From IMG/VR virus record IMGVR_UViG_2877263951_000005: 41,232 nucleotides of DNA. One strand, given 5' to 3'. The notes beneath the pieces were generated by a model that saw only the letters and a list, made by a program, of their open reading frames with translations, did no database searches and had not been told where the DNA came from. The position numbers and the translations under genes were made by a program. This DNA comes from a virus. Taxonomy: Duplodnaviria; Heunggongvirae; Uroviricota; Caudoviricetes. Positions 3,498-35,832 of the stretch are shown one piece after another (the first letter of the stretch is position 1; each line of letters begins with the position of its first letter).

Positions 3498-3589
3498 TTA
3501 AATTTAGCACTGTTAAAAATTTAATCCTTAACCGGAGGGATTTCTGCACCCTCAAATCATCAGGAGACCGCCCGAAAGGGCGGTAATGA

Positions 3590-3808
3590 ATGGTTACATT
3601 ATTTAGAAAAAAATATCCGCGAAAGAGTAGAACAACAGAATTCCTGTTTCTCATTCTGTTTATCGTGTTGATGACACCGATATCCCCGCAAATTTTTGTC
3701 TGGATAATCGGAAAAATAATTGAGCCAGTTATTGAATTGTATAACGACGTGGTATGGGCGTCATTCAACACACTGCACAATAAAATTAATCCGTATAAGG
3801 AAAGCTGA
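3590..3808 (+). CDS. Small putative membrane protein
   Basis: 72 aa with one hydrophobic span, FLFLILFIVLMTPISPQIFVWIIG. Its stop lies 1 nt before the HNH start codon. AT-rich. Confidence 0.35.
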   Translation: MVTLFRKKYPRKSRTTEFLFLILFIVLMTPISPQIFVWIIGKIIEPVIELYNDVVWASFNTLHNKINPYKES

Positions 3809-4837: not shown

Positions 4838-5202
4838 TGATTAATCGAACCAAACTGGAGCACATTCTCGAATATGCCAGGCAGCAGAAATGTATTGGGC
4901 AACTTTGTAAAATTCCACCAGGAGATATGGTTGAAATCGTGGAAATGGCCATGCGTAAGGCTGGCAACTCTCCGGTAACTCTGGCTGGCTGGATAAGCTG
5001 TAGTGATGCAGTTCCTGCTGAATATTGCGATGTGATTCTTCTCGATGATCTCGGGAATGTATTCCCCGGTTCCTGGGATAAGGTTTTTTGCCCCACTCGT
5101 GGCGGGAATAAGATGGCTTTTGTGGACAAAGACGGCGTTGAAGTAGAGAGCTCAACTCACTGGATGCCGCTACCGGAACCACCGCAGGAGGTGAATCAAT
5201 GA
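4837..5202 (+). CDS. DUF551-family phage protein
   Basis: The C-terminal ...STHWMPLPEPPQE is the DUF551 hallmark as I remember it. Confidence 0.6.
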   Translation: MINRTKLEHILEYARQQKCIGQLCKIPPGDMVEIVEMAMRKAGNSPVTLAGWISCSDAVPAEYCDVILLDDLGNVFPGSWDKVFCPTRGGNKMAFVDKDGVEVESSTHWMPLPEPPQEVNQ

Positions 5203-5282
5203 CCTGGCCTGAGGCATTCACCACGGTAGGAATTGCGATGGCGGTGGCGCTGGTGGTGTATTCGATTTGCCGTTGGGGTTAA
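5199..5282 (+). CDS. 27-aa hydrophobic peptide
   Basis: MTWPEAFTTVGIAMAVALVVYSICRWG. It has an atga overlap with the upstream gene and is followed by a strong terminator. Below the track size cutoff. Confidence 0.35.
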   Translation: MTWPEAFTTVGIAMAVALVVYSICRWG

Positions 5283-5290
5283 CAAACAAA

Positions 5291-5318
5291 AACCCCGGAT
5301 TGATGGTCCGGGGTTTTT
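5291..5318 (+). terminator. Rho-independent terminator
   Basis: aaccccgga-ttgatgg-tccggggtt followed by a T run. Confidence 0.75.
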
Positions 5319-5656
5319 GAAGGAAACAAAACAGAAACAGCAATTGCCGTTACCTGTTGTTACCATGGCAAGTAAACGTATCTCAGGCGAGCGCATTGCG
5401 CCGTTCTGACGCAGATAAATTAGCCTGGATAGAAGGTGCTGGCAATAAAAAATAGCGTTTTCTTATCGGTATCGGTAAGATTGCTGCGGGTGCTTGAGGC
5501 TGTCTGCCTCGGGCATGCCACTGTAAGGCAGACAGAGAAAAGCCCCAGTTAACATTACGCGTCCTGCAAGACGCTTAACATTAATCTGAGGCCCAATCTA
5601 TGTCTCACAAATGTAGGTTAGCCTCTTACGTGCCGAAAGGCAAGGAGAAGCAGGCT

Positions 5657-5812
5657 ATGAAGCAGCAAAAGGCGATGTTAATCGCCCTGATCGTCATCTG
5701 TTTAACCGTCATAGTGACGGCACTGGTAACGAGGAAAGACCTCTGCGAGGTACGAATCCGAACCGGCCAGACGGAGGTCGCTGTCTTCACAGCTTACGAA
5801 CCTGAGGAGTAA
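5657..5812 (+). CDS. hokD: Hok/Gef-family type I toxin (HokD/RelF-like)
   Basis: MKQQKAMLIALIVICLTVIVTALVTRKDLCEVRIRTGQTEVAVFTAYEPEE, a 51-aa canonical Hok. Track ORF 5600-5812 is an in-frame upstream extension. Confidence 0.9.
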   Translation: MKQQKAMLIALIVICLTVIVTALVTRKDLCEVRIRTGQTEVAVFTAYEPEE

Positions 5813-5880
5813 GAGACCAGGCGGGGGAGAAATCCCTCGCCACCTCTCATGTGTCAGGCATCCTCAACGCACCCGCACTA

Positions 5881-5902
5881 AACCCGCTTTGGCGGGTTTT
5901 TT
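5881..5902 (+). terminator. hok mRNA terminator
   Basis: aacccgc-tttg-gcgggtt plus a T run. Confidence 0.75.
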
Positions 5903-6048
5903 GTTGCGTGCTGAATACGCAGGGTGAAAAATAACCATATATTTGATTATATACACAACAAAAAATAAAAGTCATTGTACTTGCACATTAAACAATCAAA
6001 TATACGGCGTGAAATAAATATTTATCAGATTAATATTTTTGTCTCTAT

Positions 6049-6300
6049 GTGGATATAACCGTTTGTACTTATAAACCTGGGGGCATCGTGGAAAAAATAA
6101 AGAAACTATTTAGTAGCAAATACGCAGTCATACGTCGTGATGACCTGTCAGTTATAGTCGAAATGGATTACTTCCCTGAAACCCCAAAATCAATAATGTA
6201 TCGTAATGGTCGAAAGGCAATTTTTTTACCGATGAGGGTAAGTGACATTATGGGAAATGATAAACTGCTGGATGAATTGCGAGTCAGAGCATCCTGTTAG
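6049..6300 (+). CDS. Hypothetical protein (AT-rich moron-like ORF)
   Basis: 83-aa ORF with a GTG start after a very AT-rich leader. Its stop codon lies inside the IS1 target duplication, so the ORF is intact. No family recognised. Confidence 0.35.
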   Translation: MDITVCTYKPGGIVEKIKKLFSSKYAVIRRDDLSVIVEMDYFPETPKSIMYRNGRKAIFLPMRVSDIMGNDKLLDELRVRASC

Positions 6301-6317
6301 TAGGTAATGACTCCAAC

Positions 6318-6821
6318 TTACTGATAGTGTTTTATGTTCAGATAATGCCCGATGACCTTGTCATGCAGCTCCACCGATTTTGAGAACGACAGTGACTTCC
6401 GTACCAGCCTTGCCAGATGTTGTCTCAGATTCAGATTATGTCGCTCAATGCGCTGAGTGTAACGCTTGCTGATAACGTGCAGCTTTCCCTTCAGGCGTGA
6501 TTCATACAGCGGCCAGCCATCCGTCATCCATACCACGACCTCAAAGGCCGACAGCAGGCTCAGAAGACGCTCCAGTGTGGCCAGAGTGCGTTCACCGAAG
6601 ACGTGCGCCACAACCGTCCTCCGTATCCTGTCATACGCGTAAAACAGCCAGCGCTGACGTGATTTAGCACCGACGTAGCCCCAATGTTCGTCCATTTCAG
6701 CGCAGACAATCACATCACTGCCCGGTTGTATGCGCGAGGTTACCGACTGCGGCCTGAGTTTTTTAAGTGACGTAAAACCGTGTTGAGGCCAACGCCCATA
6801 ATGCGTGCACTGGCGCGACAT
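6318..6821 (-). CDS. insB: IS1 InsB' frame (made as InsAB' by -1 frameshift)
   Basis: 167-aa ORF identical or near-identical in all four IS1 copies. Confidence 0.9.
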
Positions 6822-7015
6822 CCGACGCCATTCATGGCCATATCAATGATTTTCTGGTGCGTACCGGGCTGAGAGGCGGTGTAAGTGAACTGTAGTTGCC
6901 ATGTTTTACGGCAATGAGAGCAGAGATAGCGCTGATGTCCGGCAGTGCTTTTGCCGTTACGCACCACGCCTTCAGTAGCGGAGCAGGAAGGACATCTGAT
7001 GGAAATGGAAGCCAC
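6740..7015 (-). CDS. insA: IS1 InsA
   Basis: 91 aa, [40 protein letters not shown]... Confidence 0.95.
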
Positions 7016-7148
7016 GCAAGCACCTTAAAATCACCATCATACACTAAATCAGTAAGTTGGCAGCATTACCCTGTTAGTATTGGCATTAATTCTGGTATAC
7101 TACATAACGGGCTGAACACCCATTCTACTGCGCCAGCGGAGAACTACG

Positions 7149-7748
7149 ATGGCGCATATACAACTGGTCAAACAAACCTCTTCCGGATTACTTCTCCCGG
7201 CGACGCCGGAGAGTTGCGATTTTTTGCATCAAATCAAAATAGGTGAGTGGATACACGCAGACTTTAAGCGTGTGCGTAACTACGCATTCCACAAGCGTTT
7301 TTTCAAACTCCTGCAACTGGGATTTGATTACTGGACTCCGGTCGGTGGGGCGATCACGCCTCGCGAACGAAAACTGGTATCAGGCTTCGTTGATTACCTG
7401 TGCGAATCAGTAGGTCGGGAACACACTCCAGCCCTGAGTGATGCCGCAGAGCAATACCTTAATACAGTTGCGACATGCAGAACCCGGGATACGGCATTGC
7501 TAAAGTCGTTTGACGCTTTCCGCGAGTGGGTAACCATTCAGGCCGGATTTTACACCGAGCATATTTATCCTGATGGTAGTCGTGGGCGCAGGGCAAAATC
7601 TATCGCATTTGCGAACATGGACGAAACCGAGTTTCAGCAGGTTTATAAATCTGTACTGAATGTGCTGTGGAACTGGATCCTGTTCCGTAAATTTTCCTCT
7701 CCGGAGGAAGTCGAAAATGTGGCCGCGCAGTTACTGGAGTTTGCGTAA
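7149..7748 (+). CDS. Lambdoid nin-region protein (DUF1367-like)
   Basis: 199-aa ORF immediately upstream of, and coupled to, a YbcO-like gene and a Q-like gene. Family name is from memory. Confidence 0.55.
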   Translation: MAHIQLVKQTSSGLLLPATPESCDFLHQIKIGEWIHADFKRVRNYAFHKRFFKLLQLGFDYWTPVGGAITPRERKLVSGFVDYLCESVGREHTPALSDAAEQYLNTVATCRTRDTALLKSFDAFREWVTIQAGFYTEHIYPDGSRGRRAKSIAFANMDETEFQQVYKSVLNVLWNWILFRKFSSPEEVENVAAQLLEFA

Positions 7749-8038
7749 TGGTGGATTTACGTAAAGCGGCGCGGGGGCAGATGTGCACCGTCAGAATTCC
7801 TGGCTACTGCAATCACAATCCCGAAACTTCTGTGCTGGCGCATTACAGGCTGGCGGGGACGTGCGGAACAGCGACAAAACCACACGATATGCAGGCAGCG
7901 ATTGCCTGTAGCTCATGCCACGATTTAATCGACGGGCGGGTAAAAACCAGCGATTACACCAAAGAAGAATTACGCCTGATGCATGCAGAAGGTGTTTTTC
8001 GCACACAAGAAATCTGGAGAAAGGAAGGTTATTTATGA
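7748..8038 (+). CDS. YbcO-like protein (DUF1364, putative nuclease)
   Basis: MVDLRKAARGQMCTVRIPGYCNHNPETSVLAHYRL...IACSSCHDLIDGR is collinear with E. coli DLP12 YbcO (96 aa). Confidence 0.8.
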   Translation: MVDLRKAARGQMCTVRIPGYCNHNPETSVLAHYRLAGTCGTATKPHDMQAAIACSSCHDLIDGRVKTSDYTKEELRLMHAEGVFRTQEIWRKEGYL

Positions 8039-8589: not shown

Positions 8590-8615
8590 CTCAATCTGTT
8601 ATCCGGGGCTATATT
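8586..8615 (+). promoter_or_regulatory. Candidate late promoter (PR'-like)
   Basis: -35 ttgact (8586-8591), 18-nt spacer, -10 tatatt (8610-8615), directly after the Q-like gene. Confidence 0.5.
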
Positions 8616-8677
8616 CCTCACGCGCCAGCAAAATCTGGCGTCGGGATTGGCGTCCCGGATGTTTACGGAGCGATATG

Positions 8678-8699
8678 AGACGCGCCCGCGTCTTTTTTC
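8678..8699 (+). terminator. tR'-like terminator downstream of the late promoter
   Basis: agacgcg-cc-cgcgtct followed by tttttt, about 65 nt after the -10 element. Confidence 0.65.
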
Positions 8700-8976
8700 A
8701 TATCGTTTGCACAGTCACATTCGCGATTTATGGCGGGCTGTGTGGGGGAGCCGAAAGGCTCGCCGGTTTCCGTACCCGGTTACGCCAACCCTGCACAGTT
8801 CGCCACCAGTTCGATTGGCGTCGTCGGTGGCGATAATTTCCAAATGTACGGAGTTATCGTTATGACCACTCAAATCTCTGTTGAAACTCTCTCCCCGATC
8901 ACCCATAACCAGTGAGGTAGCCTGAGTTTAACGGACACTCCTTCCTGAAATAGAATGGCATCAGAAGGAGCTAATA

Positions 8977-9314: not shown

Positions 9315-10133
9315 ATGTGTCAGGTATTTGGTGTATCCAGGAGCGGTTATTACAACTGGGTACAGCATGAACCCTCAGACAGAAAACAAAGTGATGAGCG
9401 GCTAAAACTGGAGATTAAGGTGGCACATATCCGCACTCGCGAAACATATGGAACCCGGCGGCTCCAGACGGAGCTGGCAGAGAATGGCATCATCGTTGGT
9501 CGTGACCGACTGGCACGTCTTCGTAAGGAGCTGAGGCTACGCTGTAAGCAGAAACGCAAGTTCAGAGCGACTACGAACCCGAACCACAATCTGCCAGTTG
9601 CGCCAAATCTGCTGAACCAGACGTTCGCTCCTACAGCACCAAATCAGGTCTGGGTGGCGGACCTGACGTATGTTGCCACACAGGAGGGATGGTTGTACCT
9701 CGCTGGCATCAAAGATGTTTATACGTGTGAAATTGTCGGCTACGCCATGGGAGAGCGCATGACAAAAGAGCTGACAGGTAAAGCCCTGTTTATGGCGCTC
9801 AGGAGCCAGCGCCCACCTGCCGGGCTAATCCACCACTCTGATCGAGGTTCACAGTACTGCGCATACGATTACCGGGTCATACAGGAGCAGTCTGGTCTGA
9901 AAACATCAATGTCGCGTAAAGGTAACTGTTACGACAACGCTCCGATGGAAAGCTTCTGGGGAACGCTGAAAAATGAGAGCCTGAGCCACTATCGTTTTAA
10001 TAACCGGGATGAAGCCATCTCAGTAATACGGGAATACATTGAGATTTTCTACAATCGTCAGCGTCGTCACTCTCGTCTGGGGAATATCTCCCCGGCAGCC
10101 TTCAGGGAAAAATATCATCAGATGGCTGCTTAA
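9315..10133 (+). CDS. IS600 OrfB (DDE transposase frame; OrfAB via -1 frameshift at A7G)
   Basis: 272-aa ORF with HHSDRGSQY and NCYDNAPMESFW motifs. Confidence 0.9.
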   Translation: MCQVFGVSRSGYYNWVQHEPSDRKQSDERLKLEIKVAHIRTRETYGTRRLQTELAENGIIVGRDRLARLRKELRLRCKQKRKFRATTNPNHNLPVAPNLLNQTFAPTAPNQVWVADLTYVATQEGWLYLAGIKDVYTCEIVGYAMGERMTKELTGKALFMALRSQRPPAGLIHHSDRGSQYCAYDYRVIQEQSGLKTSMSRKGNCYDNAPMESFWGTLKNESLSHYRFNNRDEAISVIREYIEIFYNRQRRHSRLGNISPAAFREKYHQMAA

Positions 10134-10782
10134 AAAAAGAACAAATGGTAGTGTCCGCTATTGCCAGTACACCTCACAGATTCCTGTTATTACCACCGAA
10201 CTTTTGGCGCAGCTTTACGGCACTGAGCCGGTGCGTATTCGCCAGAATCATCATGAGAACAAAGTACGCTTCGTTGAAGGGAAACACTTTTTCAAAGTTG
10301 TTGGTAATGACCTTAAAGAATTGCGGGTCGCTTTAAACTACTCACAAAATCCAGTTTCACCCAAAGCCCGCTCCCTCATCCTCTGGACAGAACGAGGCGC
10401 AGCACGCCACGGCAAAATGCTCGAAACCGATCAGGCGTGGGATGTGTTCGAAAAACTGGAAGACTGCTATTTCAGTCAAAGGGATCCGTCAACGCCAGTT
10501 TCATGCCAGAAAAGTTACGACACGCGAGTTCTCTGTTATCAGAGAGGCGGTGTCACTGTTTCCACAATTCAGTTACGGGATGATGATATTGTTATTTCCC
10601 TTGAGTCATGGCTGGAACTGGCGAGAGCCAATGGTTGGTTTGTTGTTCGCAGAGATAAACTGGTGGAAAGGTTGATGCAGCTTTAAAAAAGTTCTTGCAT
10701 TTTTGCACATAAACTGCTTCAATTCCGGTAAGCTTCGCAAAGCTGTATCGCGAGGCGAATAGCAGACATGGACACTTGAAAG

Positions 10783-10894: not shown

Positions 10895-10971
10895 GGCCCT
10901 TTAGCTCAGTTGGTCAGAGCGAGCGACTCATAATCGCCAGGTCGCTGGTTCAAGTCCAGCAAGGGCCACCA
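10895..10971 (+). tRNA. tRNA with CAU anticodon (ileX/ileZ-like tRNA-Ile2, or Met)
   Basis: 77 nt, ggcccttt...ctcataa...ttcaagtccagcaagggccacca. Very similar to E. coli ileX as I recall it. Confidence 0.85.
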
Positions 10972-10972
10972 A

Positions 10973-11049
10973 CCACCACTAGCTCATCCGGATAGAGCAT
11001 CAACCTTCTAAGTTGACGGTGCGAGGTTCGAGTCCTCGGTGGTGGGCCA
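10973..11049 (+). tRNA. tRNA-Arg (UCU)
   Basis: 77 nt with anticodon loop cttctaa, T-arm cgagg-ttcgagt-cctcg, and acceptor ccaccac/gtggtgg (C1-G72). Confidence 0.8.
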
Positions 11050-11051
11050 GC

Positions 11052-11127
<76 letters not shown>

Positions 11128-11130
11128 TAT

Positions 11131-11205
<75 letters not shown>

Positions 11206-11319
11206 TGACCTTTCTTAAAGTACTCCAACCTACTGAATCCTAAGGGATACGGCTTTAAGCCTCCTTGCAGAGTTACTTACTGTAACCCACTGTGTAACCC
11301 TCTCAGGGCATACAGACAT

Positions 11320-12924
11320 ATGATTCAGCTATCCAGTAGTCACAAACTTCCAGCAGTCTACTATCTCTACCAGCGTAACGGCGTCTACTACTTCCGTCTT
11401 AGGGTCAGACAATCAAACAATGATAGAATGACCTCAATATCATTACGGACCAAGGATAGACGCACCGCTATGGCTTACTCAAGGCACATAAAGGCAGCAC
11501 TCAAGGCAATACACGCAGACAGACCCAACGCTACCTACGAGGAAATGAGGGAACACCTTAAGGACATCGCTGAGTGTGAACTGTCTATGGGCCGTTCAGA
11601 TCTCTTTGAGCCTGACATGAGGGATATCTACCGGGACCAATACGGAGAACTTGGTGAGAGCCTTACCGATGCTCTGGCTAGTGAGCCGCTAAGCATTGAC
11701 CAGCATCGTTACATCAATGAGGCCCTGAAGGTGCTAAAAGCCTGTATGAGGCGTATCGAAGCGGGAGACAGTCAGCCTCTGATAGATTACGTCGATCTTT
11801 TTAATGATATTGATAGGCAAGATAACCAAGCAGACTCTGTGTCCCTATCTGTTAATGCTCCAGAAGTAAAACCAGAAGTTACGCCTAGCATTACCATAGC
11901 GAGCCTCTTTGAGCAATACGAAGCGGAGAACTATCAGAACTGGAAGCCTGCAACCTTAAGGGAAAACAAGGCGTCACACGCTGCGTTAATCGAAATATTC
12001 GACCATCTGGGTCTCAATGCAGACGCTAACAGGGCTGACATGCTTAGGGTCCGTGATGTGCTCCAGCAGTTACCTAGGAACCGTAAGCAGCGCTTCAAGG
12101 ATGTCCCACTTGCTGACCTGTTGAGCCGTGAAGATAAGACAGATTGTCTGGATGTCGTTACCATCAACAACAAGTATCTTATTAAGATGGCTGCTGTCTT
12201 TAGGTGGGCTGTGCGCAATGACTTGATTAAAAAGAACATGACTGAGGGTCTGGAGCTTAAAGTCCCTCAGCGTAAAGCCTCAGGGGCCCGTAACGCCTTC
12301 TCTACGGAGCAGGTGGGGCAACTACTGGTCGCAGCTAAGGCATACTCTCAGAAGACCTCTGGTAAGCCGTATCATTATTATGTTACCGCCTTGGCTGCTA
12401 TCACTGGGGCGAGACTCAATGAAATAGCCCAACTACAGGTCAAAGACGTCAGGACCACTGAGGCGGGAACCGTTTATATTCATATCAATGAAGACGATAG
12501 TAGTCTACCCGGTAAGAGCATCAAGAACGCTCATAGTGACCGCTGTGTGCCTCTGGTCGATGGGGCCTATGGTTTTATATTGGCTGACTTTATGGCGCTT
12601 GTAGAGACCCGTAGAGGCGCTGACGGTGATGACGCTATGGTGTTCGATGGTCTGCGTCTCATGAAGAACGGTTACGGTGAGCAGGTGAGTAAATGGTTTA
12701 ATCGGACGTTGTTGCCTAAAGTCCTCGTAGACCGTAGCGGCTTAGCGTTTCACTCGTTTAGACATACAGTTGCGACCCAGTTAAAACAACATGGGGTCGA
12801 GTTGGTGTATGCACAGGCGATCATGGGGCATAGTTCAGGGTCTATTACGTACGACCGTTATGCTAAAGAGGTCGAGGTTGATAGGCTGGTCAATGTGATG
12901 GCTGATGTTTATAAGGAGACCTAG
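11320..12924 (+). CDS. Tyrosine recombinase/integrase (unusually long, 534 aa)
   Basis: Catalytic signature ...ITGARLNEI..., HSFRHTVAT, GHSSGSITYDRY. It lies 114 bp downstream of tRNA-Gly. Nucleotide style is rich in cttaag/cctaagg words. Confidence 0.85.
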   Translation: MIQLSSSHKLPAVYYLYQRNGVYYFRLRVRQSNNDRMTSISLRTKDRRTAMAYSRHIKAALKAIHADRPNATYEEMREHLKDIAECELSMGRSDLFEPDMRDIYRDQYGELGESLTDALASEPLSIDQHRYINEALKVLKACMRRIEAGDSQPLIDYVDLFNDIDRQDNQADSVSLSVNAPEVKPEVTPSITIASLFEQYEAENYQNWKPATLRENKASHAALIEIFDHLGLNADANRADMLRVRDVLQQLPRNRKQRFKDVPLADLLSREDKTDCLDVVTINNKYLIKMAAVFRWAVRNDLIKKNMTEGLELKVPQRKASGARNAFSTEQVGQLLVAAKAYSQKTSGKPYHYYVTALAAITGARLNEIAQLQVKDVRTTEAGTVYIHINEDDSSLPGKSIKNAHSDRCVPLVDGAYGFILADFMALVETRRGADGDDAMVFDGLRLMKNGYGEQVSKWFNRTLLPKVLVDRSGLAFHSFRHTVATQLKQHGVELVYAQAIMGHSSGSITYDRYAKEVEVDRLVNVMADVYKET

Positions 12925-13034: not shown

Positions 13035-13231
13035 AGGGACACAAAAAGTTTTCTCTTCTAGGACAACTAACCGTAACTTATCGCATCCTTTCAGGGGCGG
13101 GATGACCAATTACAGACACCAAGCGTTCTACTTAAAGTGAATGCTTCCTGTGTGCTCTGGGTCAGTCGATAAGTGAATAGCAATAAGACACAATCATCTT
13201 AATTATGGTCTCTAGTCCCTACAGGGGCTTA

Positions 13232-13371
13232 ACTTAAAGTTAACTTAAAGACACAATTAAAGATTAACTTATAGTATTACTTAAAGTTAACTTAAAGACA
13301 CAATTAGAGATTAACTTTAAGTATTAAATAAAAGATTTAATTAAAGACCAATTAAAGATTAACTCTAAGGG
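13232..13371 (+). repeat. AT-rich tandem repeat, 47-bp unit x ~2.9, built of cttaaag/attaaag words
   Basis: 13232-13278 and 13279-13325 are 44/47 identical. A degenerate third copy runs to ~13371. Confidence 0.9.
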
Positions 13372-16651: not shown

Positions 16652-17837
16652 ATGTCTGTAGTGATATCAGGTGCGCTGACTGATGGCGCAGGTATCTCCA
16701 TGTCCGGATACCATATTATTCTGAAATCCCGGGTAAACACCCCGGAAGTGGTGATGCACACTGTTGCTGATGTGATGACAGGAAACGATGGTGAATACTG
16801 TTTCCATGCGCGGACTGGAAAATATGGTGTGTATCTGAAACAGGACTGGCACAACGAGTACAACGTTGGCGACATTGCTGTATATGAGGACTCAAAGCCC
16901 GGTACGCTGAATGACTTTCTGATTGCTCCTGATGAGGGCGACCTGAAACCAGATGTCGTCAAACGCTTTGAGGAAATGGTGGCGCAGGCGCAGCAGAGCA
17001 GGCCAAAAATGACATTGATGCTGCGCTGACCGGCACTCTGAAAACGGCTAACCATCTGTCTGAAATCGCAGCAGCAGGCGAAAAGGCACAACAGAAGTCC
17101 CGGGATAATCTGGGGCTGAAAAGTGCGGCCACGATGGAAGCACAGAGCGACATTTACGACCGGACAAAAGGCCGTCTGGCGATACCCGGCGCATTCGGCT
17201 TTGGGTGTGCTTTTCTGCCTGAAGATGTTATCCGTTTTGACACTAAGAGTGATTTCCTGGCCTGGGTAAGGAATGCGCTGCCAGGTGAATATTCCGTTGC
17301 TGGCCCCTACGGCATCATCATACCCGACACACGGTTTGAAGGGGTGCTCAGCATCCGGTGGACTGATGCACGCCCTGAGACAACAGAACCGCGGTACAGA
17401 GCCAAATCCCTTACTTTTTACGGCATTAACGGCCCCATTTATCACACCCGCTACCGCTACTGGCCCATATCCAGACTGACTGGGTGAAAATAAATATAAC
17501 CACAGAAGATATTATTTACAGAATCGTGGCGAGCTCTGTCCGCAACAGATGGGGAGACCCTGACATTGGCGGGCTGATTATTGCTGCGTACCAGGGAGAA
17601 GCTGACGGTGATAAAGTCATCAGACTTGTCAGGGGGCAGTCATACAGAGGCTCACGACTGGGACCGGTGGGGATTTCAGTGCCCAGTACTCCCACCGGAA
17701 CGTATATAGCATCCCCACAATTTTTCATTACGGGATGTTCAGAGCATTCATTACCGGGGTCATATTGCGCCCTGTCCGGGGTGCCGGATGCTCATGTCTC
17801 TGGCGCAATGCCCGGGCTTTTTATTCGCACATCGTGA
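16652..17837 (+). pseudogene. Side tail-fibre protein (lambda Stf-like N-terminus), at least two frameshifts
   Basis: MSVVISGALTDGAGISMSGYHIILKSRVNT...VYEDSKPGTLNDFL matches the prophage tail-fibre N-terminal domain. The frame breaks near 17027 and at 17485, and three consecutive ORF pieces cover the span. Confidence 0.7.
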
Positions 17838-17847
17838 GGAATGCACC

Positions 17848-18411
17848 GTGGAAATTAAAAAAATCATTAATCCCCGTTATACCGAAAGTGGCGCAGTAGA
17901 CTGTGACGTTTTTTTTGACGACAGGGACCAGGCAGTTCCCTACACAGCCACCGCTGATGATGTTGCACCGACGGGTCAGCAAATCTGGCAGGAACTGCAA
18001 AGTGGCAAATGGGGTGAGATAGCCCCATTCACTGTGACACCAGAAATGCTGGAAGCGGCCAGAGAGGCCAGACGTCAGGAAATTGAAGCATGGCGCACAG
18101 AACAGGAGGCGAAGCCGTTCACGTTTGAATGGAACGGTCGTATCTGGAATGCTGGCCCCGACTCACTGGGCCGCCTGTCCCCGGTAGTCATGCTGGCAAA
18201 ATCTGTCACAGCACAAACACATATGGCGTGGAGCGATGCCGATAATCAGCAGGTGAAACTGTCGATGCCGGAACTGGAAGAACTGGCGGCAGCAATGGTG
18301 CAGGCGCAGGTCGATCGCAACGATGAGATTTATCGCCGTCAGCGGGAGCTGAAGGAAGAGCTGAATAGTCTGAAGGATTTGAATTCGGTTAGGAATTTTA
18401 TCGTGGAATAA
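17848..18411 (+). CDS. Putative tail-fibre chaperone/assembly protein (DUF4376-like), copy 1
   Basis: GTG start with RBS gagga. VEIKKIINPRYTESGAVDCDVFFDD...WSDADNQQVKLSMPELEELAAAMV... A paralogue lies at 35833-36396. Confidence 0.5.
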   Translation: MEIKKIINPRYTESGAVDCDVFFDDRDQAVPYTATADDVAPTGQQIWQELQSGKWGEIAPFTVTPEMLEAAREARRQEIEAWRTEQEAKPFTFEWNGRIWNAGPDSLGRLSPVVMLAKSVTAQTHMAWSDADNQQVKLSMPELEELAAAMVQAQVDRNDEIYRRQRELKEELNSLKDLNSVRNFIVE

Positions 18412-18611
18412 CAGAAGCTGCGGCACGTCGTATGCAGGAACGTGCCGCGGTTGGCTGGTAAACTTTCGATAGTGCGAGTATTGAATGATTTCTAGGCGTT
18501 ATCGATTTTACGTATTTTTTGCATGATAGAATTCGTACCTCCTCCCAACGACCTTCCATGGCTTTCCGGACTTCTGTAGGCTGGCGGACGATGCTGTCCT
18601 CGGATGTTGTG

Positions 18612-19469
18612 CTAATTGGGTGATAACAGATCCTGTGTATGGGCGTTTCCCTTTGTGCGTGCGTTGATGCTGGTAACGGTAAACGTCATGATGAACACGA
18701 CCGCGAATAAGACGACAATCGTCGGAGCTGGTGCGCTGTCGATAAAAAAGGACAGCCAGACACCAGTCATTGACACTATTACCGATATGCCAGTCGCCAG
18801 TAGGAGCGCAATATGAAAGCGTTGTGTCAGGAGTACTGCAATGGCGCCAGGCGCAATGAGCAGAGAAATAGAGAGAATGATACCTACTGCTTTCAGCGTC
18901 GCCACAATGGTCAGGGAAACCATGCACAGCAGCCCATAATGCAGCCATCTCGTATGCAAACCGCTTACCTGCGCCTGTTGATAATCAAAGCTGAACAGCA
19001 AAAAATCCCGCCATTTTACGCTAATAACAAGTGTAACCAGCCCGGCAATAATCACCGTCTGGATTATATCGCCGATGGTTATCCCGAGCATGTCGCCGAA
19101 AAGAATATGGTCAAGATGTACGTCTGGTTTAATTGCAATATACAAGATCAGACCTGCGGCAAACATGCCAGAAAAAACAATCCCCATAACTGTATCTTGC
19201 TTGATTCGGCTGTTGTCTTTCAGGTATCCCGTCGCCACCGCGCAGAATACTCCGGCGACGAATGCCCCTGTAGCCAGAGGTAACCCCAGAATCCAGGTAA
19301 GCACGATGCCAGGAAAAACCGCATGACTCATCGCGTCACCCATCAGTGCCCAACCTTTCAGGACCAGAAAGACCGACAGCAGCGCACAGGGTATGGAAAC
19401 TACCAGTGAAATCAGCAGTGCGTGACTCATAAAGGTGAACTGCAGTGGCTCCAGTAATAATGCCATCAT
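18612..19469 (-). CDS. sitD: SitD, Mn/Fe ABC transporter permease
   Basis: 285-aa polytopic ABC-3 permease, last gene of the four-gene operon, with 4-nt overlap with sitC. Confidence 0.9.
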   Translation of the reverse strand: MMALLLEPLQFTFMSHALLISLVVSIPCALLSVFLVLKGWALMGDAMSHAVFPGIVLTWILGLPLATGAFVAGVFCAVATGYLKDNSRIKQDTVMGIVFSGMFAAGLILYIAIKPDVHLDHILFGDMLGITIGDIIQTVIIAGLVTLVISVKWRDFLLFSFDYQQAQVSGLHTRWLHYGLLCMVSLTIVATLKAVGIILSISLLIAPGAIAVLLTQRFHIALLLATGISVIVSMTGVWLSFFIDSAPAPTIVVLFAVVFIMTFTVTSINARTKGNAHTQDLLSPN

Positions 19470-20323
19470 GAGCGATCCTCCAGCGCTTTATGCGCACGCC
19501 GACGATTTGCCAAAAGTCCATGGGTGGGCGCAAATACAAATGCTAAAAGAAACAGCAGTGTCTGCGCCACCACGATGATTCCACCTGTCGCGCCGTCCAG
19601 AAAGTAACTGACCCACGCGCCGAGGAAACTGGTTACACTGCCAATAGTTACAGCAATTATGAGCAGGCGGGGAAAACGATCGGTTAACAACCATGCTGTT
19701 GCACCGGGAGTCACCACCAGACAGATCACCAGAAAGGCACCAACCGTTTGCAGCGCCGCAACGGTCGAAACCGACAGCAGGGTGAAGAAGAGGATTTTTA
19801 ATCTGCCCGGATGTAATCCAATAGCACGGGCGTGATTCTCGTCGAAAAAGGTCACCATAAGATCTTTCCATTTGAAAAAAAGCACGATGATCGAGAGAAT
19901 GCCAATGATAGTGAGTTGCAGGATATCCGCCGGATCGATTGCCAGAATATTGCCCAGGACGATGGTCTGAATGTTCACGGATGTCGGGTTCAATGACACC
20001 ATAAACAGCCCCAGGCCAAAAAAGGACGAGAAGATCAGGCCGATGATGGCATCTTCTTTTAAGCGGGTGCGTTGGTTAAGAAACAGCATGCTGCCCGCTG
20101 CCAGTCCGCCGGAAAAGAAGGCTCCCAGAGAAAACGGAAGCCCCAGCATATATGCCCCCGCAACACCCGGGACAATAGAGTGCGACAGCGCATCGCCAAT
20201 CAGCGACCAGCCTTTTAGCATCAGATAGCATGACAGGAAAGCGCAGAGACCGCCGACCATTGCCGAGACCCACATCGCATTGAGCATATATTCATAGCTG
20301 AAGGGTTCCAGTAGCACGTTCAT
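19466..20323 (-). CDS. sitC: SitC, Mn/Fe ABC transporter permease
   Basis: 285-aa ABC-3 permease paralogous to SitD. Confidence 0.9.
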
Positions 20324-21147
20324 CTTGCTTCCCTCTGCACCGCTGACGGTCGATGTGCCACAAAAGGGCGTTCATCGTCAGTAATAATGCTTTCTTCCGA
20401 GCCGTTAAGTGTGACATGGCGCAGTACGCCGCTAAAAGCCAGCTCCAGGTTCTCGGCTGTAAAAGTGGTGTCTGTCGGCCCGCTTGCCAGGACGGTGCCT
20501 TTGACCATGACCGTATAATCGCAAAATGTCGTGACTGAGCCGAGATTGTGCGTTGAGACAAGCATCGTTTTGCCTTCCGCGCGTAACTCCCTCAACAGGC
20601 TGATGATTTTCGCTTCGGTTTTCACATCAACGCCGGTAAAAGGTTCATCCAGCAGGATCACATCACCCTGCTGTGCAATTGCTCTCGCCAGAAAGACGCG
20701 TTTCTTTTGTCCACCGGAAAGCTCGCCGATTTGACGATGGCGAAAATCCACCATATCGACACGTTCCAGCGCATCGGTGACAATCTGACGATCCCTCTTT
20801 TTGGCTATACGCAACATACCCATATGCCCATAGCGGCCCATCATCACCACATCTTCCACCAGTACAGGAAATGACCAGTCAACCTCTTCTGACTGAGGGA
20901 CGTAGGCAACCAGGTTTTTCTGTAGCGCCTGTCGCGTGGGAATACCCAGAACAGATATCTTTCCGCTGGTCAGACGCACAAATCCCATAATCGCTTTAAA
21001 CAACGTCGATTTTCCGGAACCGTTTACCCCAACCAGAGCGGCAATAGATCCACTTGGTACTGTGAAGGATGCATCGCGCAGTGCTGTGTGCCCGTTACGC
21101 CAGGTGACAGTAACATCATTAACGACAATGCCTGCAGATTGCATCAT
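20320..21147 (-). CDS. sitB: SitB, ABC transporter ATP-binding protein
   Basis: Walker [10 protein letters not shown], signature LSGGQKKR, Walker B ILLDEPF. Confidence 0.92.
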
Positions 21148-22061
21148 TATTTCTCCCTTTTCCCGGCTTTAATTCCCTGTACCAGCGTACTGGTAGTAAC
21201 CTTAAGAAGGTCGATATACGTAGGTACCGGGCCGTTTTCTGTGCTCAGGGAATCGACATAGAGCACACCGCCGTAGTGTGCGCCGGTTTCACGCGCAACC
21301 TGACGCGCTGGTTTATCGGAAATCGTACTCTCGCTAAAGACTGCCGGGATATGATTTTTCTTAACTATATCAACAACCTTACGTACCTGCTGCGGTGTTC
21401 CTTGTTGATCGGCATTAATCGGCCACAGATAAAGCTCTTTTAGCCCCAAATCGCGTGCGAGATAAGAAAAAGCCCCTTCACTGGTGACCATCCATCGCTG
21501 ATTCTCAGGGAGTTCCGTAATCTGCTTACGCAGGGGGGCAAGGGTTTGGGTAATCTTGGCTTTATAAGTATCGGCATTACGTTGGTAGGTTTGTGCATTT
21601 GCCGGATCGTATTTTATCAACGCATCACGAATATTATCGACGTAAATCAGAGCATTATCTGGCGACATCCATGCATGGGGATTAGGTTTGCCCTCATAGG
21701 GTCCTTCGGTGATCCCTACTGGCGTCACACCCGAAGAGACAATTACTTCTGGAACCCCATTGAGATGCTGGTAAAAGCGTTGGAACCACAATTCCAGATT
21801 CATACCATTGGCGAGAATCAGTTGTGCCCCCTGCGCACGTTTAATATCGCCAGGGGTAGGCTGATACTCATGAATTTCTGCACCAGGCTTGGTTATGGAT
21901 GAGACTTCTGCAGCATCTCCAGCCACGTTTTTGGCCATATCCGCGATGATGGTAAATGTTGTAATGACCTTGAATTTTTCAGTTGCACTTGCCTGAAATG
22001 CGATCGAGCAGGTGAGGGCGAGGCACCCCAAGAGCATGGTTACTTTTTTTATTGAGTGCAT
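21147..22061 (-). CDS. sitA: SitA, periplasmic Mn/Fe-binding protein
   Basis: 304 aa with a signal peptide and a cluster-9 (PsaA/MntC-type) SBP. It is the first gene of the operon. Confidence 0.92.
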
Positions 22062-22093
22062 AATTTAGTACCTATAGTGAGCAAAATTAGAAC

Positions 22094-22115
22094 AAACATA
22101 GCAACGGCTATGTTT
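22094..22115. promoter_or_regulatory. MntR box upstream of sitA
   Basis: The palindrome aaacatagc-aac-ggctatgttt matches the MntR operator known from mntH/sitA promoters. Confidence 0.75.
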
Positions 22116-22137
22116 TATAGCATAACCTATACAAAAT

Positions 22138-22156
22138 GAAAATAATTATCATTAAC
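22138..22156. promoter_or_regulatory. Fur box upstream of sitA
   Basis: gaaaataattatcattaac matches 15/19 positions of GATAATGATAATCATTATC. Confidence 0.65.
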
Positions 22157-22269
22157 AGCTTTGAGGCCTAAAACAGGGATTAGGTTGTTTCCTGCTGGCG
22201 ACATGATATTGAGGAAAAAAGTAGAGCAGCTATTAGGCTTTGAAATGACTTTATGAGGAAAATTGTTGA

Positions 22270-22514
22270 TGGCAAAAATGGGGCAAAACGCTGTATAAGG
22301 GGCAAAAAAGGGGCAAAAAAGAGTGGGTTATCGTAGCTTATTGTTGTCGCTGATAATGTTTAACATATTGAAAAATAAATAAAATACTTATGAGTCAGAT
22401 AGTTGTGATTTTTGCCCTTACTTGTTCAGGTTGTATTGTTCTTTCTTTGTAATTTGTTGATTTTCTTGCATTATTTCAGTTCTCTGGTACTAAATGGGGC
22501 AAATTGGGGGCAAA
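22270..22514. repeat. Dispersed GGGGCAAA(A) motif, 6 direct plus 1 inverted copy (candidate integrase arm-type sites)
   Basis: Copies at 22280, 22299, 22310, 22496 and 22507, a degenerate copy at 22270, and an inverted copy at 22409-22417. All lie within 250 bp just past the 3' end of the integrase gene. Confidence 0.6.
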
Positions 22515-22522
22515 CTTTGCAA

Positions 22523-23162
22523 CTACGATAACCGCGCATTCAACATGGCTATCTGTTCGTCGTTCATGTCATCAATCCACATACCGTAAATTTCATACAC
22601 CATTTGCGCAGTTTCATGCCCCATCTGGCTGGCTATAAATGCCGGGTTCGCTCCTGCCGTCAACAGCCAGCAGGCAAAAGTATGTCGCGTGTGGTACGGA
22701 TTACGGCGGCGAATACCAGCACGTTTTACTGCTGCATTCCATCTTGTACCCAAACTGCTTACCGAGTAATAAGGTTTCTGTTTTTCGTTACACACCCTGG
22801 GCATGAAAACAAAATGCAGTTTTTGTTTTTCAGTTCTGCCGTACTCCCGATGATAAAAAGTGATTTCGCTTTTGCGATGATGCCCGGTCAGTTTGTATTG
22901 CTCCTTCAGTGCTTCAAGAGCCGGCTGCAGTAATGTTACCGTCCGGATCCCGGCATTTGTTTTTGGGGGACCGAACATATCAAGTATCGTCAGGTTTCTT
23001 CTGACATTCACAATTCCCTTCTCGAAATCCACATCCTCCCACGCCAGAGCTGCCAGTTCCCCGTGACGAAGCCCGGAGTAAACGGCAAATTTCCACAAGT
23101 TTTGGCTCTGTCCTTTTTCACTTTCCATTAATGCATTGAATTCTGTTTTAGATAACGGGTCA
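22523..23162 (-). pseudogene. Lambdoid prophage integrase, C-terminal catalytic fragment
   Basis: ...YSGLRHGELAALAWEDVD..., HTRHTFACWLL, GHETAQMVYEIY. Interrupted at 23162/23163 by IS1. Confidence 0.85.
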
Positions 23163-23217
23163 GGTAATGCTGCCAACTTACTGATTTAGTGTATGATGGT
23201 GATTTTAAGGTGCTTGC

Positions 23218-23493
23218 GTGGCTTCCATTTCCATCAGATGTCCTTCCTGCTCCGCTACTGAAGGCGTGGTGCGTAACGGCAAAAGCACTGCCGGACATCA
23301 GCGCTATCTCTGCTCTCATTGCCGTAAAACATGGCAACTACAGTTCACTTACACCGCCTCTCAGCCCGGTACGCACCAGAAAATCATTGATATGGCCATG
23401 AATGGCGTCGGATGTCGCGCCAGTGCACGCATTATGGGCGTTGGCCTCAACACGGTTTTACGTCACTTAAAAAACTCAGGCCGCAGTCGGTAA
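23218..23493 (+). CDS. insA: IS1 InsA
   Basis: Identical 91-aa InsA. Confidence 0.95.
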
Positions 23494-23915
23494 CCTCGCG
23501 CATACAACCGGGCAGTGATGTGATTGTCTGCGCTGAAATGGACGAACATTGGGGCTACGTCGGTGCTAAATCACGTCAGCGCTGGCTGTTTTACGCGTAT
23601 GACAGGATACGGAGGACGGTTGTGGCGCACGTCTTCGGTGAACGCACTCTGGCCACACTGGAGCGTCTTCTGAGCCTGCTGTCGGCCTTTGAGGTCGTGG
23701 TATGGATGACGGATGGCTGGCCGCTGTATGAATCACGCCTGAAGGGAAAGCTGCACGTTATCAGCAAGCGTTACACTCAGCGCATTGAGCGACATAATCT
23801 GAATCTGAGACAACATCTGGCAAGGCTGGTACGGAAGTCACTGTCGTTCTCAAAATCGGTGGAGCTGCATGACAAGGTCATCGGGCATTATCTGAACATA
23901 AAACACTATCAGTAA
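23412..23915 (+). CDS. insB: IS1 InsB' frame
   Basis: 167-aa ORF. Confidence 0.9.
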
Positions 23916-23930
23916 GTTGGAGTCATTACC

Positions 23931-24102
23931 CACCGGAACTGATTTGATGAACTATCAACGCTCTTAAATTCCCGGCCTTTTTAATGTTACTGTTAGTAAT
24001 CTCCCAGCCTTTCAATGTTTCCCGACATCGTTTTCCTCGAAACATGAACCAGATGCGAATGTATTTACCTCGAATCTCGACACCTGTTGGTAATTTAGAC
24101 AT
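23931..24102 (-). pseudogene. Integrase N-terminal fragment (57 codons)
   Basis: MSKLPTGVEIRGKYIRIWFMFRGKRCRETLKGWEITNSNIKKAGNLRALIVHQISSG is a typical arm-binding N-terminus. Confidence 0.75.
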
Positions 24103-32497: not shown

Positions 32498-33403
32498 CTA
32501 TATTTCCAGACATCTGTTATCACTTAACCCATTACAAGCCCGCTGCCGCAGATATTCCCGTGGCGAGCGATAACCCAGCGCACTATGCGGATGCCATTCG
32601 TTATAATGCTCGAACGCCTCTGCAAGGTTCTTTGCTGCCGTTAACCCGTCTGGTTTGGGCATGATACTGATGTAGTCACGCTTTATCGTTTTCACGAAGC
32701 TCTCTGCTATTCCGTTACTCTCCGGACTCCGCACCGCCGTGTTCTTCGGTTCAAGTCCCAACATCCGGGCGAACTGGCGTGTTTCATTATCCCGGTAGCA
32801 TGAACCATTATCCGTCAGCCACTCCACTGGAGACGACGGAAGATCGTTGCCGAAGCGGCGTTCCACTGCTCCCAGCATGACGTCCTGTACTGTTTCACTG
32901 TTGAAGCCGCCGGTAGTCACCGCCCAGTGCAGTGCCTCACGATCACAGCAGTCCAGCGCGAACGTGACACGCAGTCTCTCTCCGTTATCACAGCAGAACT
33001 CGAACCCGTCAGAGCACCATCGCTGATTGCTTTCTTTCACGGCCACTCTGCCTGTATGTGCCCGTTTCGATGGCGGTACAGCAGGTTTTCGCTCAAGCAA
33101 CAGCGCATTCTGGCGCATGAGCCGGTAAACACGTTTGGCATTGATCGCAGGCATACCATCAAGTTCTGCCTGTCTGCGAAGCAGCGCCCATACCCGACGA
33201 TAACCATACGTGGGCAGCTCTCCGATAACATGGTGTATACGGAGAAGCACATCCGTATCATCAGTGTGACGACTGCGGCGGCCATCCATCCAGTCATCGG
33301 TTCGTCTGAGAATGACGTGCAACTGCGCACGCGACACCCGGAGACAACGGCTGACTAAGCTTACTCCCCATCCCCGGGCAATAAGGGCGCGTGCGCTATC
33401 CAC
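32498..33403 (-). CDS. insD: IS2 OrfB (InsD)
   Basis: 301-aa full-length DDE transposase frame. Confidence 0.92.
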
Positions 33404-33726
33404 TTTTTTGCCCGTCCATATTCAACGGCTTCTTTGAGGAGTTCATTTTCCATCGTTTTCTTGCCGAGCAGGCGCTGGAGTTCTTTAATCTGCTTCATGG
33501 CGGCAGCAAGTTCAGAGGCAGGAACAACCTGTTCTCCGGCGGCCACAGCAGTAAGACTTCCTTCCTGGTATTGCTTACGCCAGAGAAATAGCTGGCTGGC
33601 TGCTACACCATGTTGCCGGGCAACGAGGGAGACCGTCATCCCCGGTTCAAAGCTCTGCTGAACAATTGCGATCTTTTCCTGTGTGGTACGCCGTCTGCGT
33701 TTCTCCGGCCCTAAGACATCAATCAT
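33361..33726 (-). CDS. insC: IS2 OrfA (InsC)
   Basis: 121 aa starting MIDVLGPEK. Confidence 0.92.
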
Positions 33727-35129
33727 CTGTTCTCCAATGACTAGTCTAAAAACTAGTATTAAGACTATCACTTAAATAAGTGATACTGGTTGTCTGGAGA
33801 TTCAGGGGCCAGTCTAGCAGCTGCTCTACGGTCATATTTTTAATTGCGCTCCGGTTTACAAGAGCCCACCCCTGTTTTTCCAGATAAAACTGGAAAGTAT
33901 CCAGGGTACAGACCAGTGCACCGTCAGGAACAGTTTCGGTGAATCTGATATTGCCGTGTTCGTCGAAGTGCACAACCAGAGTGCGACCGTTACCCGGAAT
34001 CATCTTGTCAGCGGACGGGGTATTATTCTGGTGCAGTTCTGCCTCCATGCGGTCGAACATCAGCGATGTAGGCCTCTTTGAATGCAGCGGCTTTTTTCCC
34101 AGTGAAGCCCATCACCAGGAAAACGAAGCCGTTTTTGGTGATTTGGTACATTGGGCGTTTTTCGCCTTTGGTGTCGGTGTAGGTGACGTCCTCAAAATTG
34201 AGGGCGTTAAATTCAGGTGAGCATTCAGTATTTGCGATGGCACGTAACACATTGTCGTGTCGTTTGTGGAAGAACTCTGCAACCGCAACAGACGTAGTGA
34301 CAGCGCGACCGTTTTCGATGGTTACGTCAGGGTGAGAAAGGGCAGGGATAGTAGCCATGATGGCATCCTCGAGTGATAAGTTAATTAACTCACCACCGAG
34401 GTTTTCCACGACCATAAGGGTGGTGAGACGTACAGGGGTGGAAATACCGGTCACTCGAGAACCCGGCCAGTCTTGCGACTGCCCTGCACATCCCACCATA
34501 ATTTGAATGGAGCTGTGCATTACGCATAAAAAAACCGCTTCAGCGCGGCTATGCGCTCGAGTAACGTTCGGGTTTCCACGCCCGGCCCCCGTTTTATGAG
34601 GTGCAGATGCACTATAATTCCACCCGTTCTGGTTTTCAATAGCTACATTCAACATTTTCTCTTACCTTTCATCACCGAAGTGAACTTTGTTGATGCGGTG
34701 CCTGGTGCCTCCAGGTGACGTTAACCAGTTAACAATTAACGCCGGATACAGGGAAACCCATAACCACCCGATACGTGGGAACTAATCGCTTTTTAACTGT
34801 TCCGCGTGCGCTCAGCCGCATTCACCGCATCACAAAATTCACTTTAAAAAGGGCGGACATCAGCCAGCAATGAAACTGATGCCGCCAAAGGTACCAATCA
34901 ACATGGAGTGTTGTGGCGTGGTTGTCACTTAAGCGTATGGTCAACCTGACAACCCGGTGTCCTCAACGGGGAAGGAATAACTCCGCCATACTTACCGCCG
35001 CGTCATTTCGCGTTGTGTGCCTGCTTTTAACTACGTCAGGCGAGGTGGTTCCTGTTATTCCCCAACAACAAGAAATTTGTATAATCTGAATACCCCAACA
35101 ATAAGAAGAGTGAGCAAGTGATGTATTAG

Positions 35130-35654: not shown

Positions 35655-35822
35655 GGGATTTCAGTGCCCAGTACTCCCACCGGAACGTATATAGCATCCC
35701 CACAATTTTTCATTACGGGATGTTCAGAGCATTCATTACCGGGGTCATATTGCGCCCTGTCCGGGGTGCCGGATGCTCATGTCTCTGGCGCAATGCCCGG
35801 GCTTTTTATTCGCACATCGTGA
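35655..35822 (+). pseudogene. Tail-fibre C-terminal fragment, copy 2
   Basis: Duplicate of 17670-17837 (offset 17985): ...GISVPSTPTGTYIASPQFFITGCSEHSLPGSYCALSGVPDAHVSGAMPGLFIRTS. Confidence 0.7.
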
Positions 35823-35832
35823 GGAATGCACC

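Follow-up and report, generated by a model that had tools for sequence, protein, structure and literature searches.

Within a 41,232-nucleotide stretch of viral DNA assigned to the Caudoviricetes (IMG/VR record IMGVR_UViG_2877263951_000005; the whole stretch is hereafter called the window), we identified four contiguous minus-strand genes at 18612-22061 as a predicted sitABCD manganese/iron importer operon lying in the remnants of lambdoid prophages (Table 1). All four open reading frames (ORFs) are intact and overlap by 4, 4, and 1 nt in the order sitD, sitC, sitB, sitA, as an earlier, preliminary description of this DNA had stated (intact, with 1-4-nt overlaps), and the encoded proteins have the lengths annotated by RefSeq in a 99.8% identical locus of E. 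coli FDAARGOS_944 as well as those of the gene calls in 10 other genomes. In operon order, the genes encode a binding protein, an ATPase, and two permeases, with Pfam matches to ZnuA, ABC_tran, and, twice, ABC-3. SitB scored 593.7 bits (cutoff 393) against NF011630, "manganese/iron ABC transporter ATP-binding protein", and SitA matched the structures of Yersinia pestis YfeA with E = 3.7e-125. In a gap-free alignment with YfeA (chain 5uxs_A), the SitA residues H64, H129, E195, and D270 are identical, and we take them to be the YfeA metal ligands H76, H141, E207, and D282, which make up the His/His/Glu/Asp site of cluster A-I. Judged by sequence, 18612-22061 is sitABCD, predicted to specify an importer of the SitABCD/YfeABCD type, in which the binding protein SitA, the ATPase SitB, and the permeases SitC and SitD would form a cluster A-I ATP-binding cassette (ABC) importer for Mn2+/Fe2+. 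Transport of both Mn2+ and Fe2+ by SitABCD is described in the literature (PMC3852070, PMC4746246).

Table 1. Features of the sit locus and its flanks, with coordinates in the window.
Feature	Position	Strand	Basis or remark
DUF4376 tail-region gene, 207 amino acids (aa), intact	17788-18411	plus	PF14301, 62.4 bits; final late gene of the phage ahead of the cargo zone
Conserved lambdoid segment downstream of the tail genes	18409-18565		Similarity to copy 2 and to other phages
sit cassette, mobile unit (sitDCBA and promoter region of ~197 bp)	18592-22258	minus	Colinearity with phage 1H12
sitD, ABC permease, 285 aa	18612-19469	minus	PF00950 ABC-3; RefSeq name on matching E. coli DNA
sitC, ABC permease, 285 aa	19466-20323	minus	PF00950 ABC-3; RefSeq name on matching E. 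coli DNA
sitB, ATPase, 275 aa	20320-21147	minus	NCBIfam equivalog NF011630
sitA, periplasmic Mn/Fe-binding protein, 304 aa	21147-22061	minus	YfeA structure match
MntR operator, perfect 9-N4-9 palindrome (predicted)	22094-22115		Half-sites as in K-12 mntH
Putative sigma-70 promoter: -35 TTTTCA (22142-22137), 17-nt spacer, -10 TATAAA (22119-22114)	22114-22142	minus	By eye
Second, imperfect MntR-like box, TATAGGTTATGCTATA on the operon strand	22116-22131		Alignment; putative function
Fur operator, two overlapping 19-mers 6 bp apart (predicted)	22132-22156		19-bp Fur consensus match
P arm of Rac-type attachment site	22259-22421		GGGGCAAA repeats at 22280, 22299, 22310
att core TTGTTCAGGTTGTATTGTTCTTTCTT, 26 bp, 5' end of ttcA	22422-22447		Common to K-12 attL and attR
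P' arm	22448-22522		GGGGCAAA repeats at 22496, 22507; matches K-12 attL ttcA-intR interval
intR-type tyrosine integrase, inactivated	22523-24102	minus	96-97% identity to K-12 intR over retained parts

The operon and its promoter region form a cassette of 3.67 kb that is colinear, at 98.1% identity, with the DNA of Escherichia phage 1H12 over exactly that span, where it is placed between the tail genes and int. Most plasmid copies of sit cover window positions 18605-22276. Matches extending over at least 80% of the query were found in 2336 of 5426 complete E. coli genomes (about 43%), in 27 phage records, including phages cultured from infant-gut E. coli, and in 976 of the 1080 plasmid records with sit matches. 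One further record, "Salmonella phage SPF_0923", was considered as a sit-carrying Salmonella phage and rejected, since it describes a predicted prophage and also contains uspF, ompN, and nifJ, which are host genes. According to Mathieu et al. (2020; PMC6969025), 70% of the lambda phages obtained from infant-gut E. coli carry sitABCD, in each case accompanied by a fur box.

In the window, sit runs opposite to the phage late genes and is located between the tail-fiber/DUF4376 gene and the attachment arm. The DUF4376 gene has the same length as the RefSeq coding sequence in E. coli FDAARGOS_944, and it is followed by a conserved lambdoid segment, of which the first part (18409-18488) recurs at a second, ipaH-bearing prophage end in the window (copy 2, described below), while similarity to other phages reaches about 18565. 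This segment contains a hairpin (GCGGCACGT...ACGTGCCGC) and is also found near the att end of other prophages. Copy 1 of the segment stops 124 bp before the sitD stop codon, consistent with the gap of about 120 bp and the convergent orientation of sit (relative to the DUF4376 gene) given in the preliminary description. The segment is 80% identical to its counterpart in phage 1H12, which there occupies the sitA side of the cassette rather than the sitD side, as here; the presence of the cassette on either side of the segment in different phages hints at a possible cassette-exchange mechanism at this hotspot.

The flanks of the cassette were further compared with sit-negative genomes by searching for an artificial sit-deleted junction, in which 18412-18591 was joined to 22259-22464. 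This junction is contiguous in 225 genomes, all displaying the order DUF4376, conserved segment, P arm, uspF; in one of them, E. coli W, it lies between the DUF4376 tail gene and uspF, i.e. within a prophage. In the prophage-free E. coli WB61, ttcA directly adjoins uspF, and only a 47-bp core inside ttcA is shared with the window (22418-22464). Since the sit-less junction lies inside prophages and WB61 is devoid of the flanks, the DNA flanking sit is of phage origin and is not, as the preliminary description had considered as an alternative, a syntenic part of the core genome in sit-negative relatives (E. coli W, the 224 others, and WB61). The match of the right flank (22270-22464) to K-12 had also made it a candidate for core genome, which we rejected, as in K-12 this DNA is the Rac P arm and WB61 possesses the 47-bp core alone. 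Taken with the cassette itself and its occurrence in cultured phages, these junctions uphold the proposal that sit is prophage cargo at the att-proximal end, and we regard it as a lambdoid prophage moron (b-region cargo) between the tail-fiber genes and the attachment site, presumably transcribed from its own promoter and separately from the late operon. The DNA that is extra relative to the empty site of E. coli W has edges (18509-18530 and 22260-22279) that are loosely alike (ATTTTTTGCATGATAGAA vs AAATTGTTGATGGCAAAA); the likeness may be due to chance or may have been left by the recombination event that brought the cassette into place.

Upstream of sitA, the palindrome at 22094-22115 reads AAACATAGC-AACG-GCTATGTTT and is a perfect 9-N4-9 inverted repeat, of which the window holds 2 against 0.16 expected per shuffled window. 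Its half-sites have zero mismatches to the palindrome AAACATAGCaaagGCTATGTTT upstream of K-12 mntH, reportedly the MntR site that Patzer and Hantke defined experimentally in 2001. A simple scan called a terminator-like hairpin at the same position, a call that we rejected as a misread MntR palindrome. Directly upstream of the perfect palindrome lies a second box (ATAGG-TTAT-GCTAT) that the preliminary description did not mention. Further upstream, the Fur 19-mer at 22138-22156 matches the consensus at 15/19 positions on the plus strand and at 16/19 on the operon strand, and an overlapping 19-mer at 22132-22150 matches at 15/19; these are the only Fur matches of at least 15/19 in the window, where 0.13 would be expected. 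The perfect MntR palindrome and the 15/19 Fur box reported earlier (the latter on the plus strand) therefore both stand.

The same arrangement is found in distant relatives. For an alignment, the DNA upstream of sitA was taken from phage 1H12, Salmonella arizonae, Citrobacter, Enterobacter, Erwinia amylovora, and Shimwellia, together with that upstream of K-12 mntH; the distant sit homologs came from a scan of genome contigs, which yielded no E. coli or Shigella locus. The block common to the alignment consists of the Fur box followed by two adjacent ATAGC-N4-GCTAT boxes, and upstream of sitA in Salmonella, Citrobacter, Enterobacter, Erwinia, and Shimwellia not only the ATAGC-N4-GCTAT core but its tandem pair is kept. 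Several other sit loci, from a number of other genera, likewise have a Fur-like box around -92 to -105. The retention of predicted MntR and Fur operators at sit, far above chance expectation and positionally conserved across Enterobacterales, is thus confirmed by the comparison.

We infer the sit promoter to lie among these operators: its putative hexamers are conserved in the operator alignment, the -35 falling within the Fur box and the -10 between the two MntR boxes. A simple promoter/terminator scan, which demands a T at the last -10 position, returned no convincing sigma-70 promoter between the operators, and the Rfam search detected no cis-regulatory RNA in the sit leader or the cassette. 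The Fur operator would overlie the putative -35, and the two MntR boxes would bracket the putative -10 and extend over the likely start site. Given this layout over the promoter, Fe2+-Fur and Mn2+-MntR would each block RNA polymerase, and sit would be induced under shortage of both metals, such as within host cells. Dual repression by Fur and MntR has been demonstrated experimentally for Salmonella sit (PMC8970401). For Shigella sit, a review reports MntR repression and anaerobic repression (PMC3852070, citing Runyen-Janecky 2006, Ikeda 2005, and Boulette and Payne 2007), and metal regulation is reported in two reviews (PMC3852070, PMC4746246).

Beyond the cassette, comparison with E. coli K-12 indicates a complete Rac-type attP comprising P arm, core, and P' arm. 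Window positions 22270-22447 match K-12 Rac attR, and 22422-22522 match K-12 attL beside intR; from 22270, the P arm is 94% identical to the K-12 DNA between the right end of Rac and uspF, while the P' arm bears the phage-borne ttcA start codon (22471-22469, minus strand). The window contains five plus-strand GGGGCAAA octamers, all within 22280-22514. In the preliminary description, these arm-type-like repeats and the integrase were assigned to the next prophage. Both are real, but three of the five repeats belong to the P arm of the sit prophage itself and only two to the P' arm by the integrase. Among near-identical strains (L088, L089, L090, L092, and L095), the P-arm repeats (22280-22320) are present in 1, 3, or 4 copies, a variation that suggests slippage in an attachment arm no longer used.

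A functional integrase is not present beside this attP. The intR gene survives as a 3' part (22523-23162) and a 5' stub (23926-24102), separated by the insertion sequence (IS) IS1 (23163-23933), and about 422 bp are missing relative to K-12 intR (L005 positions 3243 to 3666). E. coli Jnd12 has the same junction, with a Rac-like right end, attP, and a complete intR-xisR-recET region. Five genomes with identical SitA (L089, L091, L092, L094, and L096) display the order sit-attR-uspF instead; one genome with this order, CP000036.1, we take to be S. boydii Sb227.

The ColV virulence plasmid pAPEC-O2-ColV (NC_007675.1; L098) matches window 18605-22565 at its positions 4001-7932; this span comprises sit, a complete Rac-type attP with both arms and the core, and the terminal 43 nt of intR, whereas the other listed plasmids stop at window 22252-22276. 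The attP and the intR piece point to a phage origin of this plasmid copy of sit. We consider it improbable that the attP adjacent to sit is still usable by IntR supplied in trans (e.g. by a resident Rac-like prophage); if it were, sit, which the plasmid carries in the same sit-attP-int' block, could move among phage, chromosome, and virulence plasmids by site-specific recombination at ttcA, in addition to phage infection and IS activity.

The second prophage end in the window displays the order DUF4376 (35773-36396), a terminator-like hairpin, ipaH (36576-38291, minus strand), the small RNA (sRNA) CssrB, and the conserved segment (38562-38640). Its DUF4376 gene is 97.3% identical to the copy at 17788-18411, and its conserved segment is 79-85% identical to 18409-18488. 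The preliminary description placed sit in the equivalent cargo position of the other prophage end. At the level of the gene map this holds, but the two cargos occupy opposite sides of the conserved segment, ipaH on the tail side and sit on the att side, and the ends belong to different sites: as the ipaH end adjoins pphA, it lies at a chromosomal site other than the ttcA/Rac site of the sit end. The core-genome gene pphA (38868-39479), found in all 5426 E. coli genomes, starts about 230 bp past the conserved segment; an IS at 39480 cuts it short. CssrB (Chromosome-encoded Shigella sRNA B) is a full-length Rfam match (38420-38602, plus strand; 151.6 bits vs a gathering score of 76) situated between ipaH and the copy 2 segment, and its 3' end overlaps the hairpin of the segment. 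At the copy 1 segment (18394-18449), the CssrB match is partial and, at 30 bits, below the Rfam threshold.

Decay of the surrounding phage DNA is extensive and uneven. In the first remnant, the head/tail morphogenesis module between Q and the tail fibers is absent, and the tail-fiber gene is reduced to three fragments; ORFs for a DnaC-like protein, Ren, NinB, Q, and an anti-repressor remain open, as does DUF4376. The second remnant keeps only early-left genes, which are interrupted by IS elements. The earlier statement that nearly every phage gene is broken is accordingly right for the tail-fiber gene, the integrase, and the missing morphogenesis module, but not for these six open ORFs. The tail-fiber gene by DUF4376 (16988-17837) comprises three ORFs, has lost 4 bp at 17473 relative to FDAARGOS_944, and lacks some 67 bp near 16988-16999; in the close relatives L088, L093, L095, and L097 it is a continuous ORF of 422-429 aa.

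Comparison of sit with phage 1H12 revealed 39.5 synonymous and 13.5 non-synonymous differences, a ratio of non-synonymous to synonymous rates (dN/dS) of about 0.11. Relative to the closest E. coli prophage, that of FDAARGOS_944, the 3450 bp of sit differ by 2 substitutions, which both fall on third codon positions; DUF4376 carries 4 substitutions in 624 bp and the tail-fiber part 18 differing alignment columns, including the 4-bp deletion. The exact SitA protein was found in 16362 blocks of a public assembly collection, and sit is intact in genomes whose phage side has become IS elements (L089 and L092). Purifying selection on sit is therefore supported by dN/dS, by widespread identical SitA, and by intact sit in differently decayed genomes. 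According to review literature (PMC3852070, citing Fisher 2009), mutants in sitA show attenuation or lose in competition, in cells as well as in a mouse lung model.

Together, these observations argue, with a probability that we put at roughly 0.9, for a sitABCD Mn/Fe importer that is a self-contained lambdoid moron with a Fur/MntR-controlled promoter, located at the Rac site and kept by purifying selection within a decayed phage. The Rac site, at the 5' end of ttcA, is where the carrier phage would have integrated. On the simplest reading, a second Rac-type phage would then have integrated in tandem, giving the attP-type junction and the intR killed by IS1, and the phage morphogenesis genes would have been lost by deletion and IS activity while sit was kept by purifying selection. 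Both the tandem integration and the selective cause of the retention of sit are steps that we infer.

Several points weigh against this account. The putative sit promoter hexamers are weak (9/12) and were missed by the automatic scan, and Fur/MntR binding, sit transcription, and transport are at this locus predictions only. By a rough estimate, the probability that sit would have missed the ~12 IS insertions in this window by chance is ~0.2, and intactness within the window alone is therefore no demonstration of selection. The preliminary description had read the intactness of the cargo alone as fitting selection; the comparative data (dN/dS and the relatives) support that view, but the pattern in the window by itself is not significant. 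The lower divergence of sit compared with the tail-fiber genes could in part reflect recombination mosaicism of tail genes. Finally, ttcA and uspF lie outside the window, and tandem integration and a circularly permuted single genome are not separable from its content.

The last point bears on the strongest alternative, in which the window holds one phage genome whose modules stand in vegetative (circularly permuted) order and which entered the chromosome, or was rearranged in it, by homologous or IS-mediated recombination and not by IntR at attP. The order O-like, DnaC-like, Ren, NinB, Q, tail-fiber fragments, sit, attP, int, xis, Gam, RecE, kil region, Rha/Ash would indeed make up one lambda-like module set, the same IS is found near both ends of the window (1-1106 and 32498-33771), and the far end adjoins pphA and not uspF, so that large rearrangements clearly took place. 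However, the contiguous prophage-end/attP/intR junction of Jnd12 and the sit-attR-uspF state of the five genomes with identical SitA show how a single IntR integration into attR yields the junction seen here, and we judge the permuted genome to be possible but distinctly the less probable course of events.

A second alternative attributes the intactness of sit to too little time or too few mutations, with no selection involved, so that its contrast with the broken phage genes would be a sampling effect. Such sampling is conceivable in the window, where sit makes up ~12% of the non-IS DNA, which enters the above estimate of its escaping the IS insertions, and where several phage ORFs of unknown value are also intact. 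Nevertheless, the dN/dS obtained over 53 substitutions relative to phage 1H12, the breadth of the identical SitA, the differently decayed phage flanks beside intact sit, and the attenuation or out-competition of sitA mutants (per the review cited above; PMC3852070, citing Fisher 2009) make this explanation quite unlikely. Least probable is an insertion of sit into an already dead remnant in the Shigella lineage, e.g. by IS-mediated transposition from a ColV-type plasmid, in place of an arrival as phage cargo: sit is frequent on conjugative plasmids and the window is rich in IS elements, but no IS flanks the cassette, the same cassette and flanks occur in a FDAARGOS_944 prophage with a full tail gene set (99.8% identity over 18412-22464 and 99.45% over 16988-22464), the cassette is also present in cultured phages, and the attP and intR piece of pAPEC-O2-ColV point to transfer from phage to plasmid.

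Other elements of the window lie apart from sit. At 10895-12924, a tRNA cluster (Met-CAT, Arg-TCT, Thr-TGT, and Gly-TCC) is followed directly by an intact ORF for a 534-aa tyrosine recombinase (Phage_integrase and DUF6538), and an AT-rich array of TTAACTTAAAG-like repeats follows at 13229-13364; this block could represent an integrative element of its own within the prophage remnant. A match to the sok antitoxin RNA (CssrC) was found at 5488-5662. The isrK and C4 antisense RNA pair occurs in two copies (8609-8810, plus strand, and 34416-34604, minus strand), one of them upstream of the anti-repressor ORF at 10039-10686, and from these matches the pairs look like P1/P7-style c4/ant immunity modules in both remnants.

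Among known systems, the locus is the already described prophage-borne sit operon of Shigella and E. coli, for which the island named "PAI sit" (PMC7545054), the cargo status, and Fur/MntR control have been published. According to PMC4746246, PMC3852070, and PMC7545054 (for Runyen-Janecky 2003, 2006, and Fisher 2009), Shigella flexneri sit/"PAI sit" comprises the same four genes and has the same association with a phage-like island, at different chromosomal sites in Shigella and E. coli; the same papers cover the iron/manganese regulation of Shigella sit and its role in intracellular growth. We see no substantive difference from "PAI sit", to which only finer structure is added here, and the window is 99.2-99.98% identical to the sit neighborhood of CP097828.1 in aligned blocks totaling ~17 kb. 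Under metal limitation by the host, sitABCD adds to the fitness of Shigella and of pathogenic E. coli, so its preservation while the prophage decays is a textbook example of phage cargo that has become domesticated. The added detail, which covers the exact limits of the cassette, the empty-site allele, the dual MntR boxes, and the complete attP junction at ttcA, is useful mainly for annotation and also helps to trace the movement of sit among phages, chromosomes, and ColV plasmids.

The coliphages 1H12, ev207, ev017, and Perceval (PMC6969025) and the prophage 042p3 of enteroaggregative E. coli 042 (PMC2808357) carry sitABCD as morons too. The cassettes of the cultured coliphages are 98.1-98.2% identical to the one described here and likewise lie between the tail-fiber genes and int, opposite to the late genes, and in phage 1H12 the Fur box upstream of sit matches at 17/19. 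These phages differ in being viable, in their integrase, and, for 1H12, in the side of the cassette on which the conserved segment lies. More distantly, the SPI-1-adjacent sitABCD of Salmonella enterica and yfeABCD of Yersinia pestis have the same operon architecture, SitA being 76% identical to its S. arizonae homolog and about 70% identical to YfeA (counted from the alignment). Upstream of Salmonella sitA, a Fur box is followed by MntR boxes as in the window, but Salmonella sit is a diverged ortholog that, per the literature, is located in a pathogenicity island and not in a lambdoid prophage; Yersinia is without MntR, and Fur handles both metals (PMC3852070). The K-12 mntH promoter shares identical MntR half-sites and the order Fur box, MntR box, start codon, but it has a single full MntR palindrome and serves a core-genome NRAMP transporter. 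With K-12 Rac (IntR, ttcA), the attachment site shares both arms and the core, which match attR and attL, and what is left of the integrase shows 96-97% identity; here, by contrast, the arms are joined as attP between two remnants, intR is disrupted by IS1, and the cargo is sit rather than pinR-ydfK-ynaM.

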